From NCBI GenBank assembly GCA_964016885.1, contig OZ024763.1, forward strand, positions 15,314,001-15,378,000: a stretch of DNA of 64,000 bases, written 5' to 3'. The DNA is from Eledone cirrhosa (Eukaryota). Made by a program: the position numbers and the translations under genes. Under the pieces are notes generated by a model that saw only the letters and a list, made by a program, of their open reading frames with translations, was not told the origin of the DNA and did no database searches. The first letter of the stretch is position 1, and every line of letters starts with the position of its first letter. Shown piece by piece: positions 6,481 to 51,289 of the stretch.

Positions 6481-6882
6481 TGTGGAAGGTTTTTAGATTA
6501 ATATAAATCTTTTAATACCATATTTCTAATGAAAACCATTGTCTGAAAATTTCAAATCATTTTGAATATACTCAAGAATTTAGAGGTATTTAGTAATATA
6601 ACTTTCTCAAAACCAACCCTTTAGCATTTACATTACTCTATATATATACTATTGTATTTTCATGGTAAAGGCTTTATATCTGAACTTCATTTGAATATAT
6701 AAAATTTAATTAGCGTAAAATTTTACTTATGTGATAGGGTCCGGGAGAGGGACCATAAGCAATTTATGCTCCTTTAAGAATCAACAAATGTTGGTCTGTC
6801 CCCGTCACACTTTTAAGGCAAACAAGGCCCCCCGCTTCTGCCCCACTCCAAAAAGTGTTAATAGAAAACATTCGGTACTTAC

Positions 6883-7043
6883 TTTTCATTTTCCTGTCGG
6901 ATATAGGTCTTTGGACCAATCACAACACGGGTTACATTGGTGTTTTGGTCAATTACATGAAGGTAAAAGTAAGGGGGAATTCGGTTGAGCATACAGTCTT
7001 CCATTCCTGAAGTTGTCTTGGCTTTCTTTTCTGCAGCAGACAT
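6883..7043 (-). CDS. MVP: Major vault protein, first coding exon (exon acceptor at 7068, ATG at 7043)
   Basis: Translates [53 protein letters not shown], matching the MVP N-terminal repeat (RIPPYHYIHVLDQN...[11 protein letters not shown]). Acceptor ttattccAG upstream, GTAAGT donor after 6883, phase 2. Confidence 0.95.
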
Positions 7044-7087
7044 ACCAGAGGGAGGTGAAAATCGTTTCCTGGAATAACAAACCAAAG

Positions 7088-26249: not shown

Positions 26250-27025
26250 TATTAAAAATGTATTTATCAAACTGCTGTTGATGTGAATGAATTTTGCTGG
26301 CTTGGCAGAGAGAGAGAGAGAGGGGGGGAGTCTGTGTAAAGCAGAGACTTCATATTAGCTGCTTGAATTAAATGCTCCAACTGACCTCCTGTTCTGAGAG
26401 CTGGCTATTTTATGAATAAGAGAGGGGGGGGGTCTGTGTAAAGCAGAGACTTCATATTAGCTGCTTGAATTAAATGCTCCAACTGACCTCCTGTTCTGAG
26501 AGCCGGCTATTTTATGAATATCGTTTTCTTTGTCTCCGAGATACAGAAAAGATGCAATGCTCAGGCAAATCACAGAGGCAACAAATATAAACAAACTCCA
26601 ACCAAAATTAAACAGAAACATGAGTGGAATCGCAACATCACAACTAGTAATTGAGGACAAAATGAAGGCATACACACACACACACAAAACCAAACTAACA
26701 AAACAAATCAGACACACACAGATAGAACAAATAACCAACTAGTGACAAATAAATAAATAAATAAATAAGCATACACACCTGGATGTAACATAGGCGCAAA
26801 CTAGCACACAACACACAACACACAAAAACAAGATCGTGTAGGAGAGAACAAAGGAGAGAGACACTAAAAAAACCTAGTCACTGAGGAGGTCACAGAATGT
26901 GTGACGAAAGAGTTTTGACAATATATATACAACTTTCCGGTTATCGAACCAACCGGAAATTTATAATAAATTGAAGTAAAAACGAACAGGTGCGTGTGTT
27001 TTTATTGGCAACATGACCCTTCCAA
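26250..27025 (+). mobile_element. Penelope-like element 3' fragment: GIY-YIG C-terminus plus hammerhead (26877-26919, family H3)
   Basis: 26530-26630 reads RYRKDAMLRQITEATNINKLQPKLNR (R.I.EA..I....P.LN, then HEW after a frameshift), typical of PLE endonuclease ends. Downstream: gtca-CTGAGGA-ggtcaca..tgtgac-GAAA-gagt-TT-tgac and aataaa. Confidence 0.7.
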
Positions 27026-28689
27026 TATATATATATATATATATTGGATTGGTAGAGGGTCGGACAATATGCTTTGCGGCATAGAGTTATAGCCCTTTAC
27101 GTTCTGAATTTAAATCTCGCCGAGGTTATTTTTACCTTTCATCCTTACGGGGTCGATGAAATAAAGTACCAAATTGCTGGACTTGTGCCTAAATAAGAAA
27201 CCATCATATAAGAACAAACACACTCCTCGATTTCAGTGGGGGAAATATTTTTTCCTCGTTTTCTTTTTTTCAGTGTACTATCAACTAATCTAACTTCCAA
27301 AATGCTAGCAATCAACTTTTTTCATAGAGAACGGAGGTGGTGGGATAGTTTCTACCGGATAACCCACTACTTCCTCGGGGTTTTCCCTACGATCTTTTTC
27401 TTTTTTTTTTTCGCGTGTTAATTAATGAATATAACCTCTAAAAAAAACAAAGGATCGAAAAGACGGCACAACAACGCTATTAGCTGTCAGTCGTGAAAGC
27501 AGCCAATGAAAGCAGGCGAAGGGACCATCAGAGATCCGCAGATCTACACACACGAGGAAGTACCCTACCTCTCCTTTCGCCGGGGAAAAAAATTGATTGC
27601 CAGCATCTTGGAAGTTACATTAGTTAATAGCACACGACAAAAAAGACGAAAAAAAAAGGTTGTTTTTTTCACACTAAAATCGAGGGACGGGGCTCGTTTT
27701 CTATAAATTTACCGTAAATACCATAAACATTTGAATTTACAAACCAGTTGTTAGGTTTTCTCTGCGAAGTTATTACAGGATGTTAAACGTTTATTTATTA
27801 TAATTTTCACATTAGTGTTGTTGTTGGCCGCGATATGGTAGATACCATCTGAAGTGCCCTCATTTCACATAAAATACTCACGCTGATACTAAATATACAC
27901 AAGATATGGAAAGGTTGGTTCAAACAAATAACTATTCTTCATTGTTTTAATTAATTGTTGTTACGAAATAAATATTACTACTGTTGGCACAATGTAAGGA
28001 TGAAAGGCAAAGTTACTCGTAATAATTGTTTCTACTTTTGACACAAGGCCTAAAACAGTTAATCGTAATAATTGTTTCTATTTTTGGCACAAGGCCAGCA
28101 ATGACTCAGTGTATAACTGGTACTTTGTTTTATCGACCCCCGTAAGGATGAAAGGCAAAGTTAACCTCGGCGGGATTTCGTAATAATGAAATGTTTATTG
28201 TGCCTTTACTAGTTGACACTTCACAAAATAGATGACCTACATGAAATGACAACCGTAAAGTTGACATTTTCCCCATCAGACAAATATGTTGACAACATAA
28301 ATCATAGATTAAAATTACGCACACAGGTGAAAAACATCCTGTAATTCACATTACAGGTGCAATGTGTCCTAACACGGAAGAGCCGAATTCCCACTGTCAT
28401 CGTCCCCATCTCTGTATTGTGAGCAAATGGGGACCCACGGGCTGGCCGCCTCACAGCCCCGACGGACAGAATGGAGAAGAAAATTATTTACTAATTTTCT
28501 TGTTATTACTACTCGCTATGTAATTAACATTTTTAGGTGTGGTAGAGTAAGAGATTTTAAGGGCATTTTTATTAATTAAATTATGGTATTTGTGATCAAG
28601 TGGGAATTTTGTTTCAATGTTAGAGAAGAATACTCTAGGTATATTAGTAGAAACATTTAAATTGAAGGGTGAATTAAAATACGAATTAA

Positions 28690-30775: not shown

Positions 30776-31810
30776 CATCATCATCATCATCATCATCGTT
30801 TAACGTCCATCTTCCACGCTTACATGGGTTTGGACGGGAATTTTCCCACTTGAGGCAAGATTGGTTGACTTGCTCGTATAGGACTGTCTGGCGGGTTTTC
30901 TACAGCTGGATGCCCTTCCTAACACCAACCACGTTTACAGTGTGGAACTGGGAACTTATTACCGTGTTACCTACACGGCCACATTACAGCGTGGACTGTG
31001 TGTTTTTCTTTGTCGTGACACCTACACGACCTCATTTGTTTCGGACTGGATGTTGTGGTACCAACATAACTTTACATTGAAAGGGGTGGTGTGGATGGGG
31101 TGGGGGTAGTGGTACGGGGGTGTATTTTGTTAGAGGTGCCTACTGACTGTAGTAGGTTTCACTTTGTACTTAGGTAAGGCGGGTCTTCTCTATTACTGAG
31201 TACCGCCAAAGATCTCGGTCCAGTGACATTGTCTTGGAGAGGTGTAAGTGTGTGAGGTCGGAATTTATCAAGTTGTCCCGTGTTTTTCTGGGTCTGCCTA
31301 CTCCGTGGCTACCGTCTATTTTTATCACCCTGCACTTTTTTATACAGTTGTCGTCTTTCATGCACATCACGTGACCATACCAACGTAGTCTTCTCTCGAG
31401 TAAACAACATCTGATCCCTCTTATTCCTAATTTCTCCCTTAGTTCGTTTATGCTTTGCCGTTCACGTATATTACTATTACACATCCAGCGGAGCATGCAA
31501 GCTTCGTTCCTCTCCAGTCTGCGTATATCCTCTGCACACAATGCCCAAGTCTCACTGCCATGTAACATTGCTGTTCGTATGCAGGCATCATACAGCCTGC
31601 CTTTCATTTTTAGGGAGAACCCTTTAGCGGCCAATAGTGGTATAAGCTCTCTGAACTTTTTCCATCCCGTTCTGACTCTAGCTACTGTACTTTCAGAGCA
31701 CCCTCCCCCACTGCTGATTTTGTCACTCAGGTAACGGAAGGTGTCCACTATTTCTATAGAACCATCTGTGCAATAGAATGAGTTAGTATTCTGTGGGCAC
31801 TTGCAGACAT
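30776..31810 (-). mobile_element. RTE LINE 3' fragment with tail
   Basis: ORF 31170-31748 ..RVRTGWKKFREL..HGSETW..LRWYGHV..GRPRKT, followed by the (GAT)n tail. Confidence 0.9.
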
Positions 31811-31999
31811 GTATATAATAAGAAATGAAACTAGAAGGCCCATATATATACCTGTGTGTATGTATATATATAAATGAGTATGTTTGTATACATATATATG
31901 TGTGTGTGTGTGTATATATATATATATGCTATCCAAACTGAACCTGAACCAATATGGTCTGGTTCATCGGGTATGTCATTATTTATAAAACAAAGTTTG

Positions 32000-32066
32000 T
32001 ATTTTATCTGATGAGAGTGTACCAAAGTTGTTTTTTTGGTACCCTTGAAATATATGTAATAAAATA
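32000..32066 (+). ncRNA. Type I hammerhead motif, family H2-related
   Basis: tattttat-CTGATGA-gagtgtaccaaa..tttggtaccctt-GAAA-tatatg-TA-ataaaata. 8-bp stem I, GUA triplet. Confidence 0.75.
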
Positions 32067-33372
32067 AGTTAACTTGTCTAAGACTAAAGTTCTAGTATGT
32101 AGAAAGGAAAATAGGGCACAGGTGCCCTCTGGGAAATGGCCATGTTCAGTGTGTAGGAAATGAGTAGGTATAAATTCCATTCTATGCCCCAAATGCAAAC
32201 TATGTAGTGGGATTACAGGTTAGCTATCTAAGAATGTAGTAAGTAGCAAGGTGCAGTAAGTAGCAAGGACCCACTGGCTGCTATCACCTTCAACTGCACA
32301 GATGGTTCTATAGAAATAGTGGACACCTTGCGTTACCTGGGTGACAAAATCAGCAGTGGAGGAGGGTGCTCTGAAAGTACAGTAGCCAGAGTTAGAACGG
32401 GATGGAAAAAGTTCAGAGCTTATACCACTGTTGGCCACAAAAGGTTTCTCTCTAAAAATGAAAGGCAGATTGTATGATGCCTGTAAACGAACAGCAATGC
32501 TACATGGCAGTGAGACATGGGCATTGTGTGTAGAGGACCTATGCAGATTGGAAAAGAACGAAGCTCATGCATGCTCCGTTGGATGTGTAATAGTAATATA
32601 CGTGAACGGCAAAGCATAAATGAACTAAGTGAGAAATTCGGAATAAGACGGATCAGATACTGTTTACTTGAGAGAAGACTACGTTTGTATGGTCACGTGA
32701 TGCGCAGGAAAGACAGCTGTATAAAAAAGTGCAGGGCAATCAAAATTGATGGAAGTTACGGAGTAGGTAGACCCAGAAAAACCCGGGATGACATAATAAA
32801 ATCTGACCTTGCACACTTACACCTCTCTAAGACAATGTCACTGGATCGAGACCTTTGGCGCCATGCAGTAATACAGAAGACCCGCCTTGCCTATGTACAA
32901 AGTGAAACCTACAGTCGGTAGGCACCTCTTAACCAAATATACACCCAATCCACTACCCCTACCCTATCCTCCCATTCCCACCAACACCACCCTTTCTCTG
33001 TAAAGTTATGTTGGTACCACAACATCCAGTTCAAACTAAAGAGGTTGTGTAGGTGTCACGACAAAAAGCACCCAGTCCACACTATAATGTGGTCGTGTAG
33101 GAGACACGGTAAAAAGGCTCCCAGTCCACACTGTAATGTGGTCGTGTAGGAGACACGGTAAAAAGGCTCCCAGTCCACACTGTAAATAGGCTCCCAGTCC
33201 ACACTGTAAATGTGGTTGGTGTTAGGAAGGGCATCAAGTCGTAGAAAAACTGCCAGATACAGTCCGATATGAGCAACACACGGTCACCCAATTAATCTTG
33301 CCTCAAATGGGACAATTCCCATCTAACCCATGCTAGCATGGAAGATAGACGTTAAGCAATGATGATGATGAT
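32067..33372 (+). mobile_element. RTE LINE 3' fragment with tail, inverted relative to 30776-31810
   Basis: GKWPCSVCRK..HGSETW..GRPRKT remnants; tail ends gacgttaagcaat(gat)n. Confidence 0.9.
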
Positions 33373-34582: not shown

Positions 34583-35409
34583 GGTTGTGGCAAGTGAGAT
34601 AGAACTGATCCCTAAAGACCACACTACTGAAACCTGTGCAATGCCAACTCCTAAAAAGGAAGACTGCAGTATTGATACCAGTTTATTACTGACCCCTGAA
34701 GAAGAAGAAGGCCACAGTATTGAAACCTCTGCTATGCCAACCCCTAAAAAAGAAGACCACAGTATTGAAACCTGTGCATCACTGACCTCTGAGGAAGAAT
34801 GTCGCAGTGTTAAAACCTCTGCCATGCCAACCCCTAAAAAAGAAGACCACACTACTGAAACCTGTGCAATGCCAACCCCTAAAAAGGAAGACTGCAGTAT
34901 TGATACCAGTTTATTACTGACCCCTGAAGAAGAAGAAGGCCACAGTATTGAAACCTCTGCCATGCCAACCCCTAAAAGGGAAGACCACAGTATTGAAACC
35001 TGTGTATCACTGACCTCTGAGGAAGAATTGCACAGTGTTAAAACCTTTGCAGAACCAACCCCTGAAACAAACCCTGGCATTAAAACTTGTGAAGTACTGA
35101 GTCCTAAAAAAGAAGACCACAGCATTAAAACTTGTGCAATACCGAGCTCCAAAAGTAACCCTGACATTAAAACTTGTGCAATACCGAGCTCCAAAAGTAA
35201 CCCTGACATTAAAACTTGTGCAATACCGAGCTCCAGGGTTCAAGAAAGTAATAATGTCCCTGCAAAACTCCTAACTAAAGATGATGACGACAACAACAAC
35301 GGTAAAATACCCAGCTCCAGAGAAGATCTTCGAAGTGAGATGCCCTCCCCAACCCCTCCTACCCACAGTTTACTACCCCCAGGGTTGACAAACCTGTTAC
35401 AAAATTGTA
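34583..35409 (+). CDS. RHIM + death-domain adaptor (IMD/RIPK1-like): repeat-rich exon; start codon or upstream exon not determined
   Basis: Polypyrimidine tract with ttccAG acceptor at 34581-82 and A|GTAAGT donor after 35409. Open frame VVASEIELIPKDHTTETCAMPTPKKED...PPGLTNLLQNC contains about 14 units of 14-16 aa. Phase 1 joins the next exon in frame. Confidence 0.8.
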
Positions 35410-36260: not shown

Positions 36261-36371
36261 CTATTACTAGCAATCATGTTCAAATAGGTACCAGAAATAC
36301 TATGACTCTATATGGCAACCAACCTGAAAGAGATTATCAAACTGTTGCAAAAAATCACAGCTACGGTGTTG
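36261..36371 (+). CDS. RHIM-encoding exon of the RHIM/death-domain adaptor
   Basis: tttcaacAG acceptor and G|GTAAGT donor, 111 nt, phase 1-1. Reads (T)ITSNHVQIGTRNTMTLYGNQPERDYQTVAKNHSYGV; VQIGxxNxM matches the RHIM core consensus. Confidence 0.85.
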
Positions 36372-36827: not shown

Positions 36828-37069
36828 GCAGTATCGGTAGAGGGTCGGACACCATGCTTTGACGCATAGAGTTACGGCCCTTGCCATTCTGAGTTCGAAT
36901 CCTGCCGAGGTTAAATTTGCCTTTCATGCTTACGGGGTCGATAAAATAAGGAACCAGTAATGTACTGGGGTAATTGCTGGCCTTGTGCCAAAAGCAGAAA
37001 CAATTATTATTAGTATGGGAGTTTGTTTACAACAACCAATACCACCAAAGCAGCGTTTTTTTGTTGCTT

Positions 37070-38463
37070 GTTGTCATCGTGACCGAATTCATTACTAGTG
37101 TTGTTGTTGTTGTTACCGCTGCTTTGGTTAGGTGGTCATTGTATTGGCTATCTAGTGTTGATGTTGCTGTTGTCATCGTGACCAAATTCATTACTAGTGT
37201 TGTTGTTGTTGTTGTTGTTACCGCTGCTTTGCTTAGGTGGTCATTGTATTGGCTATCTAGTGTTGATGTTGCTGTTGTCATCGTGACTGAATTCATTACT
37301 AGTGTTGTTGTTGTTGTTGTTACCGTTGCTTTGGTTAGGTGGTCATTGTATTGGCTATCTAGTGTTGATGTTGCTGTTGTCATCGTGACCAAATTCATTA
37401 CTAGTGTTGTTGTTGTTGTTGTTGTTACCGCTGCTTTGCTTAGGTGGTCATTGTATTGGCTATCTAGTGTTGATGTTGCTGTTGTCATCGTGACCAAATT
37501 CATTACTAGTGTTGTTGTTGTTGTTGTTGTTACCGCTGCTTTGCTTAGGTGGTCATTGTATTGGCTATCTAGTGTTGATGTTGCTGTTGTCATCGTGACT
37601 GAATTCATTACTAGTGTTGTTGTTGTTGTTGTTGTTACCGCTGCTTTGCTTAGGTGGTCATTGTATTGGCTATCTAGTGTTGATGTTGCTGTTGTCATCG
37701 TGACTGAATTCATTACTAGTGTTGTTGTTGTTGTTGTTGTTACCGCTGCTTTGCTTAGGTGGTCATTGTATTGGCTATCTAGTGTTGATGTTGCTGTTGT
37801 CATCGTGACTGAATTCATTACTAGTGTTGTTGTTGTTGTTGTTGTTACCGCTGCTTTGCTTAGGTGGTCATTGTATTGGCTATCTAGTGTTGATGTTGCT
37901 GTTGTCATCGTGACTGAATTCATTACTAGTGTTGTTGTTGTTGTTGTTGTTACCGCTGCTTTGCTTAGGTGGTCATTGTATTGGCTATCTAGTGTTGATG
38001 TTGCTGTTGTCATCGTGACTGAATTCATTACTAGTGTTGTTGTTGTTGTTGTTGTTGTTACCGCTGCTTTGCTTAGGTGGTCATTGTATTGGCTATCTAG
38101 TGTTGATGTTGCTGTTGTCATCGTGACTGAATTCATTACTAGTGTTGTTGTTGTTGTTGTTGTTGTTACCGTTGCTTTGCTTAGGTGGTCATTGTATTGG
38201 CTATCTAGTGTTGATGTTGCTGTTGTCATCGTGACTGAATTCATTACTAGTGTTGTTGTTGTTGTTGTTGTTGTTGTTACCGCTGCTTTGCTTAGGTGGT
38301 CATTGTATTGGCTATCTAGTGTTGATGTTGCTGTTGTCATCGTGACTGAATTCATTACTAGTGTTGTTGTTGTTGTTGTTACCGCTGCTTTGCTTAGGTG
38401 GTCATTGTATTGGCTATCTAGTGTTGATGTTGCTGTTGTCATCGTGACCAAATTCATTACTAG

Positions 38464-38494
<31 letters not shown>

Positions 38495-38577
38495 ACCGCT
38501 GCTTTGCTTAGGTGGTCATTGTATTGGCTATCTCTTGTTGATGTTGCTGTTGTCATCGTGACCAAATTCATTACTAG

Positions 38578-38608
<31 letters not shown>

Positions 38609-40146
38609 ACCGCTGCTTTGCTTAGGTGGTCATTGTATTGGCTATCTAGTGTTGATGTTGCTGTTGTCATCGTGACTGAATTCATTACTAGTGTTGTTGT
38701 TGTTGTTGTTGTTGTTACCGCTGCTTTGCTTAGGTGGTCATTGTATTGGCTATCTAGTGTTGATGTTGCTGTTGTCATCGTGACTGAATTCATTACTAGT
38801 GTTGTTGTTGTTGTTGTTGTTGTTGTTACCGTTGCTTTGCTTAGGTGGTCATTGTATTGGCTATCTAGTGTTGATGTTGCTGTTGTCATCGTGACTGAAT
38901 TCATTACTAGTGTTGTTGTTGTTGTTGTTGTTACCGCTGCTTTGCTTAGGTGGTCATTGTATTGGCTATCTCTTGTTGATGTTGCTGTTGTCATCGTGAC
39001 CAAATTCATTACTAGTGTTGTTGTTGTTGTTGTTGTTGTTACCGCTGCTTTGCTTAGGTGGTCATTGTATTGGCTATCTAGTGTTGATGTTGCTGTTGTC
39101 ATCGTGACTGAATTCATTACTAGTGTTGTTGTTGTTGTTGTTGTTGTTACCGCTGCTTTGCTTAGGTGGTCATTGTATTGGCTATCTCTTGTTGATGTTG
39201 CTGTTGTTATCGTGACTGAATTCATTACTAGTGTTGTTGTTGTTGTTGTTACCGTTGCTTTGCTTAGGTGGTCATTGTATTGGCTATCTAGTGTTGATGT
39301 TGCTGTTGTCATCGTGACCAAATTCATTACTAGTGTTGTTGTTGTTGTTGTTGTTGTTACCGCTGCTTTGCTTAGGTGGTCATTGTATTGGCTATCTAGT
39401 GTTGATGTTGCTGTTGTCATCGTGACTGAATTCATTACTAGTGTTGTTGTTGTTGTTGTTGTTGTTACCGCTGCTTTGCTTAGGTGGTCATTGTATTGGC
39501 TATCTAGTGTTGATGTTGCTGTTGTCATCGTGACCAAATTCATTACTAGTGTTGTTGTTGTTGTTACCGCTGCTTTGGTTAGGTGGTCATTGTATTGGCT
39601 ATCTAGTGTTGATGTTGCTGTTGTTATCGTGACTGAATTCATTACTAGTGTTGTTGTTGTTGTTGTTACCGTTGCTTTGCTTAGGTGGTCATTGTATTGG
39701 CTATCTAGTGTTGATGTTGCTGTTGTCATCGTGACTGAATTCATTACTAGTGTTGTTGTTGTTGTTGTTGTTGTTGTTACCGTTGCTTTGCTTAGGTGGT
39801 CATTGTATTGGCTATCTAGTGTTGATGTTGCTGTTGTCATCGTGACTGAATTCATTACTAGTGTTGTTGTTGTTGTTGTTACCGCTGCTTTGCTTAGGTG
39901 GTCATTGTATTGGCTATCTAGTGTTGATGTTGCTGTTGTCATCGTGACTGAATTCATTACTAGTGTTGTTGTTGTTGTTGTTGTTGTTACCGCTGCTTTG
40001 CTTAGGTGGTCATTGTATTGGCTATCTAGTGTTGATGTTGCTGTTGTCATCGTGACTGAATTCATTACTAGTGTTGTTGTTGTTACCGTTGCTTTGCTTA
40101 GGTGGTCATTGTATTGGCTATCTAATGTTGATGTTGCTGTTGTCAT
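37070..40146. repeat. ~120-bp compound minisatellite (about 26 copies) with variable (GTT)n, intronic
   Basis: Constant GTTGTCATCGTGAC(TG/CA)AATTCATTACTAGT + (GTT)n + ACCG(C/T)TGCTTTGCTTAGGTGGTCATTGTATTGGCTATCTAGTGTTGATGTTGCT. Confidence 0.95.
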
Positions 40147-42543: not shown

Positions 42544-42706
42544 ATTTGGTCTTGGATTTGAGGTCTAAGTTAGGACCTTAAAAAGGACTTAATCCAGCCT
42601 TGGATTGGAAGTTTCAGTTGTTATGGACTTAAAAAGGGCTTATCTGGCTCTGGATTTGAGGGAGATATTTTGGTTATTTCTAAACAAATATAACATGAAA
42701 CACTTA

Positions 42707-44521
42707 AATATGAATACTAAAGGAACATTATAAAACTTTAATATGAATACTAAAGTAACATTATAAAACTTTAATATGAATACTAAAGTAACGTTATAAA
42801 ACTTTAATATGAATACTAAAGGAACATTATAAAACTTTAATATGAATACTAAAGGAACATTATAAAACTTTAATATGAATACTAAAGTAACATTATAAAA
42901 CTTTAATATGAATACTAAAGTAACGTTATAAAACTTTAATATGAATACTAAAGGAACGTTATAAAACTTTAATATGAATACTAAAGGAACGTTATAAAAC
43001 TTTAATATGAATACTAAAGGAACATTATAAAACTTTAATATGAATACTAAAGTAACGTTATAAAACTTTAATATGAATACTAAAGGAACATTATAAAACT
43101 TTAATATGAATACTAAAGTAACATTATAAAACTTTAATATGAATACTAAAGGAACGTTATAAAACTTTAATATGAATACTAAAGGAACGTTATAAAACTT
43201 TAATATGAATACTAAAGCAACGTTATAAAACTTTAATATGAATACTAAAGGAACATTATAAAACTTTAATATGAATACTAAAGGAACATTATAAAACTTT
43301 AATATGAATACTAAAGGAACATTATAAAACTTTCATATGAATACTAAAGGAACATTATAAAACTTTCATATGAATACTAAAGGAACATTATAAAACTTTA
43401 ATATGAATACTAAAGTAACATTATAAAACTTTAATATGAATACTAAAGGAACATTATAAAACTTTCATATGAATACTAAAGGAACATTATAAAACTTTAA
43501 TATGAATACTAAAGGAACATTATAAAACTTTAATATGAATACTAAAGGAACATTATAAAACTTTAATATGAATACTAAAGTAACATTATAAAACTTTAAT
43601 ATGAATACTAAAGTAACGTTATAAAACTTTAATATGAATACTAAAGGAACATTATAAAACTTTAATATGAATACTAAAGGAACATTATAAAACTTTAATA
43701 TGAATACTAAAGTAACATTATAAAACTTTAATATGAATACTAAAGTAACGTTATAAAACTTTAATATGAATACTAAAGGAACGTTATAAAACTTTAATAT
43801 GAATACTAAAGGAACGTTATAAAACTTTAATATGAATACTAAAGGAACATTATAAAACTTTAATATGAATACTAAAGTAACGTTATAAAACTTTAATATG
43901 AATACTAAAGGAACATTATAAAACTTTAATATGAATACTAAAGTAACATTATAAAACTTTAATATGAATACTAAAGGAACGTTATAAAACTTTAATATGA
44001 ATACTAAAGCAACGTTATAAAACTTTAATATGAATACTAAAGGAACATTATAAAACTTTAATATGAATACTAAAGGAACATTATAAAACTTTAATATGAA
44101 TACTAAAGGAACATTATAAAACTTTCATATGAATACTAAAGGAACATTATAAAACTTTCATATGAATACTAAAGGAACATTATAAAACTTTAATATGAAT
44201 ACTAAAGTAACATTATAAAACTTTAATATGAATACTAAAGGAACATTATAAAACTTTCATATGAATACTAAAGGAACATTATAAAACTTTAATATGAATA
44301 CTAAAGGAACATTATAAAACTTTAATATGAATACTAAAGGAACATTATAAAACTTTCATATGAATACTAAAGGAACATTATAAAACTTTAATATGAATAC
44401 TAAAGGAACATTATAAAACTTTCATATGAATACTAAAGGAACATTATAAAACTTTAATATGAATACTAAAGGAACGTTATAAAACTTTAATATGAATACT
44501 AAAGGAACATTATAAAACTTT
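42707..44521. repeat. 33-bp minisatellite, about 55 copies, abutting the death-domain exon A acceptor
   Basis: Unit AATATGAATACTAAAGGAACATTATAAAACTTT. Confidence 0.95.
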
Positions 44522-44528
44522 GTTGCAG

Positions 44529-44603
44529 ACTCAAACAGAAATGTGACTGAGCTTGATTTGAACAGAATAGCTGAGTACCTTGGAAAGAGATGGAAAATAG
44601 TCG
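44529..44603 (+). CDS. Death domain exon A of the RHIM/death-domain adaptor
   Basis: tttgttgcAG acceptor and G|GTATGT donor, 75 nt, phase 1-1. Reads (D)SNRNVTELDLNRIAEYLGKRWKIV, a death-domain helix 1-2 pattern (L..IA..LG..WK.). Confidence 0.88.
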
Positions 44604-45107: not shown

Positions 45108-45304
45108 GTCGCTATTTAGGCATCCCGGACCATAAACTAAGCAATATAGAAGCTGATAACAGACTAGGAATAGTTGAACATAGTTTTCAGATGCTAAAGA
45201 TGTGGTCCCAGAATTGTGAGGAGGGCAGAGGTACGGTCAACACTCTCAGTAAAGCCCTTGTTGATGCGAATTGCAATGATGCCATTAAATTCCTAAATCC
45301 CTAA
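45108..45304 (+). CDS. Death domain exon B (terminal) of the RHIM/death-domain adaptor
   Basis: gtgttgcAG acceptor. Reads (G)RYLGIPDHKLSNIEADNRLGIVEHSFQMLKMWSQNCEEGRGTVNTLSKALVDANCNDAIKFLNP*, with death-domain motifs R.LG....L..I....E...QML..W......T...L..AL. Confidence 0.9.
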
Positions 45305-50869: not shown

Positions 50870-51270
50870 AAAAGAACAAAAAACATATATTGATAATTAA
50901 CGGTGCTGCGATTGAATGTGGCTTTTTAGCCCAGCCAATGATCTAAAAATTCTTGCACAGAGTTGGCAACCATAATAAAAACATTCACTGGCAATAGCCG
51001 GATGTGGTTGGTCTTCATGTACTTTTGCATGTCGTTGGAGCCCTCCTGCTGATCTACACTCACTCTTTTCCACATGCTTGACAGGTATGATGAGTAGCAT
51101 CTCTGACAGCAGCCTGGAAGGCAACCACTGGTCTTACTTTATGACTGTGAAGATGGCTTTCGAGTCCAGCTTTGCCGAGGTAGAGTCTTGCACAGACGCT
51201 GCATGTCAGCGACATAGGAGGACCTTCGCTGTCTGGAAATGTAACAGCAATGCCTTTCCTGACATTCCTT
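50870..51270 (-). mobile_element. RTE/BovB-like LINE 3' relic with C2H2-like finger
   Basis: ..CRSAGGLQRHAKVH..CQLCARIFRSLAGLKSHIQSQH. Confidence 0.65.
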
Positions 51271-51289
51271 TTTCAGTAAAGTTAAAATC

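Follow-up and report, generated by a model that had tools for sequence, protein, structure and literature searches.

A probable near-neutral coding minisatellite in the N-terminal tail of a likely kinase-less, IMD-like adaptor of Eledone cirrhosa

The closest described counterparts of the gene reported here are IMD, an adaptor of insects and crustaceans, and the C-terminal half of RIPK1. Insect IMD is cleaved at sites that read LEKD/A, LETD/A, LTTD/A and LKSD/A, in which the D and the A are conserved in the portion of the source available (PMC6626034), and the consensus of the IAP-binding motif (IBM) is set out in excerpts of a further paper as A(K,T,V,I)(P,A,E)(F,E,I,S,Y) (PMC3972657). The RHIM tetrad is given in excerpted literature as (V/I)-Q-(V/I/L/C)-G, with M547 of RIPK1 at the +8 position. 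The accessible text of a 2023 paper reports that the Imd adaptor had not been found in molluscs or brachiopods (PMC9835746), and RIPK1/3 are traced back to Mollusca in the accessible text of another (PMC13506858); other background comes from parts of 10.1101/010942, PMC13159474, PMC3308963, PMC5486846, 10.64898/2026.02.19.706818 and PMC6683665. Our literature search, which covered a minority of the subscription journals, found no paper on the gene or on the repeat array within it.

Here, we describe a single-copy, five-exon gene of Eledone cirrhosa that encodes a predicted protein of 405 aa and carries in its second exon an array of 14 repeat units. We consider the array to be, with a probability of about 70%, a recent, lineage-specific and near-neutral coding minisatellite that extends an N-terminal tail predicted to be disordered. 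The window, which is the whole 64,000-nucleotide stretch of DNA that was analysed, also includes an exon of the major vault protein (6882-7073, minus strand, E 7e-14); the major vault protein gene lies about 20 kb from the adaptor gene, is transcribed away from it, and is a useful synteny marker. A LINE-type element lies in pieces at 21385-24169 on the minus strand, with an endonuclease, a reverse transcriptase (E 1e-15) and a PHD-like finger, and further LINE-type fragments were recognised by eye at 31170-32921 and 50979-52303.

All introns of the gene are GT-AG, and its exons are as follows.

27473..27913, plus strand: exon 1, 5′ UTR and the first 8 coding bases, with the ATG at 27906
34583..35409, plus strand: exon 2, low-complexity N-terminal region; AG/GT ends, X1 contigs depart from the genomic sequence at both ends
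36261..36371, plus strand: exon 3, RHIM-like motif; join from 35409 seen in X1 contigs
44529..44603, plus strand: exon 4, first part of the death domain; AG/GT ends, open frame and alignment with relatives, joins predicted
45108..45304, plus strand: exon 5, coding part, remaining death domain and stop; PF00531, join predicted

Two contigs of sequencing run X1 exit the genomic sequence at exon ends, and because their loose ends correspond to 27882-27911 and to the sequence from 36261 on, X1 is spliced and the first two joins are established; the 3′ end of exon 1 and its join to 34583 lie in one such loose end. X1 is taken as a transcript run from its spliced contigs alone, and the contigs of runs X2-X4 continue through the flanking introns. 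The 5′ end of exon 1 is placed by the extent of the X1 contig and would hold if there is no further intron, and the last two joins are predicted from frame and the extent of the X1 contig. The ATG is preceded by an in-frame stop 12 codons upstream, and between this stop and the stretch covered by the transcript contig there is no AG acceptor; the transcript form seen, which is represented by one 5′ join in one run, therefore has no upstream kinase. Exon 2 encodes the array, a spacer rich in Asp/Asn and Pro, and the beginning of the RHIM-like stretch.

Several other features of the locus were recorded. Contigs of all four runs have C for G at 35337 (Glu to Gln), and those of X2-X4, unlike X1, have G for A at 36333. 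A 33-bp satellite of 55 copies (42702-44521) ends no more than 10 bases from the exon 4 acceptor, which keeps only a short pyrimidine tract beside it, and another satellite in that intron, with a 108-bp unit (37062-40146), yields two spurious open frames of more than 1080 aa. A site fitting a pattern that we take to be kappaB-like lies at 27377-27386, about 90 bp before the predicted transcript start, and is the only one in 26000-28000.

Exon 5 encodes a death domain (PF00531, E 5.9e-07). Among 42 PDB sequences, a profile of exon 5 and four relatives matched RIPK1 (E 4e-15) and FADD (E 7e-08); exon 5 alone gave TNFR1 at 0.025 and RIPK1 at 0.85. Exon 3 encodes the tetrad VQIG (36278-36289), which agrees with the RHIM pattern and has a Met at +8. 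Because Pfam and PDB searches, RHIM profiles included, did not detect the exon 3 motif, the element is regarded as RHIM-like by motif only. The RHIM-like stretch has a weak match in the Argonauta relative (p 0.014), and the O. sinensis relative lacks a clear RHIM tetrad (p 0.89). Both marks of a kinase-less RIP adaptor, a C-terminal, RIPK1-type death domain and, in the transcript form seen, the absence of a kinase, are found, and the protein is likely to be a kinase-less adaptor of IMD-like build. An earlier reading of the letters alone (the sequence-only reading) had assigned the repeats to an adaptor N-terminus, and this assignment stands: the array is N-terminal in a kinase-less protein with a RHIM-like VQIG and a RIPK1-type death domain.

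As in IMD and the C-terminal half of RIPK1, such a protein would polymerise through its RHIM-like motif. Its death domain would recruit FADD and a caspase-8-like protease, judging from the known families, with NF-kB or death signalling as the output. The array would be a flexible passenger tail that projects from the filament, adds at most Lys and Ser/Thr acceptors for ubiquitin and phosphate, and escapes caspase cleavage at the repeated site.

Relatives of the protein are few. Eight matches, all octopod, were found among 1.84 billion representatives, and a cluster look-up added two; four of the ten are kinase-less death-domain proteins or fragments, and six are RING- or ankyrin-linked or related death-domain proteins. 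The nearest four are from Argonauta (GAB1602126.1), O. sinensis (XP_029651593.2), O. bimaculoides (XP_014771873.1) and O. vulgaris (CAI9741231.1). Death-domain identity to these is 29-32 of 64 residues (44-50%) and the grouping of the Eledone gene with them has moderate support (81/86 and 82/83), so that true orthologues may be unseen; the gene is the best genome match of XP_014771873.1. Two relatives are already annotated as RIPK1-like in public records. Exon 5 searched against longer proteins gave none from eight candidates, and the Argonauta C-terminal part used as a query returned only itself (1 of 71 candidates). The Eledone genome contains at least ten related death-domain exons (G000 C18, 5.3-12.8 Mb, and C27, 13.7-15.0 Mb; loci L003-L012 and L016), and this expanded exon family is a strongly supported clade (99/98), some members of which adjoin RING-like exons.

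The array itself is laid out as follows.

34623..35246, plus strand: repeat array, 14 units of 42, 45 or 48 bp, by unit splitting and Tandem Repeats Finder
34623, 34668, 34716, 34761, 34806, 34851, 34896, plus strand: starts of units 1-7
34944, 34989, 35034, 35076, 35121, 35163, 35205, plus strand: starts of units 8-14
34620-34847 and 34848-35075, plus strand: two copies of a 228-bp five-unit block, Tandem Repeats Finder period 228
35121..35246, plus strand: three 42-bp units with AIPS, the only tetrapeptide meeting the published IBM consensus

The units (14-16 aa) are all in frame, with every length divisible by three, and the stretch 34620-35235 lies within a single open frame; as expected of a coding minisatellite, they run head to tail inside a spliced exon. 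At a score threshold of 50, Tandem Repeats Finder reports periods of 45, 93, 228 and 42 bp, with scores of 353 for period 45 and 809 for period 228 (1.9 copies, 95%). The two copies of the 228-bp block differ 5 times within their first 180 bp and 20 times over the full 228, and the fifth unit has thus diverged between them. Unit classes alternate along the array, with the higher-order periods of 93 bp and 228 bp. A-x-P follows xxT(C/S/F) in 9 of the 14 units (AMPT in five, AEPT in one, AIPS in three), a PK[KR]ED[HC] tail is present in six, and four have x-x-Leu plus an acidic tail without A-x-P. The sequence-only reading had reported about 14 units of 14-16 aa, nine of them with A-x-P in exactly these counts, and a five-unit duplication of 228 bp, all of which we recover; the consensus that it proposed for the unit, ending in PKKEDH, describes one unit class and fails elsewhere, as the tail counts show.

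Array DNA is single-copy, with one match in the 3.0-Gb genome, and is spanned by contigs from four runs, of which three are unspliced and one is spliced. Contig depth is about doubled over the parts that are identical between copies, in agreement with the assembled copy number; the four covering runs belong to one study with at most two samples and are possibly the source of the assembly itself. The 207 aa of the array include 20 Lys, 11 Cys, 56 Ser/Thr and a single aromatic residue, in a composition rich in T, E, S, P and K, and its charge-hydropathy value of 0.409 lies on the disordered side of the boundary of 0.445.

AlphaFold2 gives one beta-strand per unit (14 strands), as if the units stacked into a beta-solenoid or a second amyloid segment that aids or blocks RHIM assembly. 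The model has a pLDDT of 46.9, a pTM of 0.42 and no fold match, and Pro, Glu and Lys abound in the units. As a control we translated a 45-bp satellite that is unrelated to the array and presumably non-coding (L019:1082-1938, G000 C6); it produced the same strand-per-repeat model at pLDDT 83, so the strands drawn in the array are no evidence of a fold. On this control we reject the beta-solenoid as modelled, and we give next to no credence to the stacking idea. That AlphaFold2 folds the translated control satellite as a beta-solenoid at this pLDDT without an alignment is also a general caution for repeat open reading frames.

On the minisatellite reading, a single 45-bp unit would have been copied by slippage or unequal exchange, the copies would have split into two classes, and these would have been recopied as blocks, with constraint limited to keeping the frame and avoiding stops. 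Of 28 distinct variant bases counted in the 30-bp core, 8 are at first, 11 at second and 9 at third codon positions, with no third-position excess. Values of pN/pS are 0.288/0.368 over eight distinct units and 0.063/0.096 between the two copies of the 228-bp block; the ratio is below 1 (0.66-0.78), from small counts in units that are not independent, and for this reason weak selection on the array is possible. A Thr at the position corresponding to caspase P2 is kept in 14 of 14 units, synonymous change included.

Lineage specificity is suggested by the relatives. The array is absent from all ten octopod relatives, two of which have an N-terminus to inspect, one of these partial, and its absence from the four nearest death-domain relatives speaks for neutrality. 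Exon 2 searched against 5.8 billion proteins gave no array match (0 of 6698 candidates), and the Atlas held no usable match to the array. We considered and rejected the idea that the O. sinensis N-terminus holds a forerunner of the unit in single copy: the match looked collinear in one alignment but was not significant (p 0.07-0.31). An origin from a dispersed satellite was likewise rejected: the genome has 95 other six-frame matches, and at the six of nine fetched non-self loci that were checked there is no DNA likeness (best E 0.9).

Related genes show in-frame expansion as well. RING-like exons beside three of four related death-domain exons carry an unrelated in-frame unit of 36 bp in 1, 1, 2 and 4 copies, as counted within 160 kb upstream of the four death-domain exons, with linkage by position only and with a fifth RING-like exon, in L034, outside the count. 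Two O. sinensis RING/death-domain proteins have 17-aa linker repeats of their own, seen by eye; the linker repeat of an O. sinensis RING/death-domain protein aligns weakly with the array (p 0.01, against a shuffle that ignores periodicity). The window contains many minisatellites of 33-108 bp.

Against neutrality stands the likeness of the units to IMD cleavage sites, which is uncommon in shuffles. The sequence-only reading had seen in the unit an amplified IETD/AxP module whose P1 Asp was replaced by Cys or Ser. Seven of the 14 units match the insect-IMD-like pattern [LIV][EKT][KST]xAxP, which arises in 0.2-0.5% of shuffles per matching unit and in up to 1% with any one position left free; the pattern was chosen after the sequence had been seen, and its P4 was widened to Ile/Val where the insect sites have Leu. 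The sequences support a likeness at P4-P2 and P1′-P3′ beyond that of composition alone, yet one that would count as a single ancestral event, because the units all go back to one ancestor. What the sequences do not support is descent from an Asp site or function as a caspase or IBM array, and the outcomes that the sequence-only reading had itself named as refuting tell against both. P1 is Cys in eight units, Ser in five, Phe in one and Asp in none, and its codons (TGT, TCT, AGT, TTT) are in all 14 cases two substitutions from Asp, none of them beginning with G. The 405-aa model has 17 Asp before the death domain, of which none is followed by Ala and none precedes an A-x-P, and it has no N-terminal D/A-x-P site for DREDD as in a strict IMD.

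The same likeness could be an inert relic, if the unit descended from an IMD-type caspase site and IBM that lost its Asp before amplification. The seven matching units, the insect sites quoted above and the IMD-like architecture of the protein all fit such a history, which we nevertheless hold to be quite improbable: it has to accommodate the two-step distance of every P1 codon from Asp, the loss of any Asp-bearing copy from the protein, a P4 that had to be widened from the Leu of insect sites, and the absence of D-[AS]-x-[PA] from all ten relatives. The last is weak as a check on an ancestral xETD/AxP site, with two inspectable N-termini, one of them partial.

A working array was also proposed, as a caspase decoy, a redox- or phospho-gated cleavage array or a multi-IBM sensor, and would be cut after phosphoserine or oxidised Cys, or by another protease, exposing IAP-binding ends. 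Some caspases do cleave after phosphoserine, according to the accessible part of one review, which also describes native phosphoserine substrates of caspases as virtually unknown (PMC11253702), and P1 offers Ser in five units and Cys in eight. AIPS alone meets the IBM consensus; it occurs in 3 of 14 units, which are copies of one unit, and in 3% of shuffles. AMPT and AEPT fail it, AMPT at two positions, and AMPT is what the three Ser-Ala-x-Pro units would expose, whereas the AIPS units have Cys at P1, where cleavage after oxidation is an argument from chemistry alone. Nor is A-x-P kept better than the rest of the unit, with P2 Thr in 14, P4 Ile in 10, Ala in 10, Pro in 9 and P4′ Thr in 10 of the 14 units; after six near-copies are dropped, the eight distinct units have Ala in six, Pro in five and Thr in all eight. 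The Ala and Pro columns are no better conserved than neighbouring columns, and pN/pS there is 0.327/0.488 versus 0.288/0.368 across all ten. With no Asp at P1, no special retention of A-x-P and AIPS alone fitting the consensus, we find the proposal of a working decoy or gated array very hard to credit. The fuller version, in which a multivalent array has replaced the Asp cleavage/IBM switch, P1 Ser phosphorylation or Cys oxidation licenses cutting, and Ala-x-Pro recruits IAPs, strikes us as highly implausible; if true, it would place immune signalling under kinase or redox control and would be the first case in nature of an Asp mimic serving as a signalling switch.

A minisatellite by origin might still have been retained as a multisite tail that tunes ubiquitylation, phosphorylation, turnover or filament growth of the adaptor. 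Using [ST]Px[KR] and [PSAT]x[QE]E, which we take to be kinase-type and TRAF2-type motifs, six of 14 units carry the former and four the latter. The 20 lysines, the repeated T/S-P-K-K and acidic motifs, and a pN/pS below 1 are compatible with such a role, and IMD is K63-ubiquitylated according to a partly available source. However, the two motifs arise in 3-13% and 26-35%, respectively, of shuffles of the carrier units, CK2-type sites are at chance (9 versus 10.7), a TRAF6-type site is absent from the array, and relatives do without the array. We regard retention for this purpose as unlikely and prefer the near-neutral minisatellite, on which reading the array is of little weight, being one further coding minisatellite in a genome rich in repeats.

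The host adaptor gene is of more interest than the repeat. It is a spliced, kinase-less gene that appears to have a RHIM tetrad of canonical form and a death domain of RIPK1 type but no Asp/IBM switch, and it offers a test of cephalopod signalling through RHIM amyloids and of ubiquitin-ligase recruitment by an adaptor without caspase cleavage.

Compared with known systems, the predicted protein is close in architecture to insect and crustacean IMD, which likewise has no kinase, a low-complexity N-terminus, an amyloid-type motif and a RIPK1-type C-terminal death domain. IMD, however, has a D/A-x-P site and an exposed IBM, neither of which is present in the Eledone protein, and a cryptic VxxG core in place of the canonical VQIG; insect IMD is 240-280 aa long in the portion of the source available, as against 405 aa, and the likeness described here is one of architecture. 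The C-terminal half of RIPK1 shares the RHIM-like tetrad with Met at +8 followed by a death domain (family profile E 4e-15), but RIPK1 has a kinase domain that the transcript form seen lacks, the spacing before the tetrad differs, and the Pfam RHIM profile is blank on the Eledone protein. The four octopod kinase-less death-domain proteins resemble it in the death domain, and the Argonauta one also in the RHIM-like stretch, but they are without the array, and their N-termini either are missing or consist of unrelated low-complexity sequence. While copy-number polymorphism is typical of coding minisatellites (VNTRs) in disordered linkers and the array is known from four runs of one study, it resembles them in being in-frame, in its nested higher-order duplication, in its lineage specificity and in its apparently slight amino-acid constraint.
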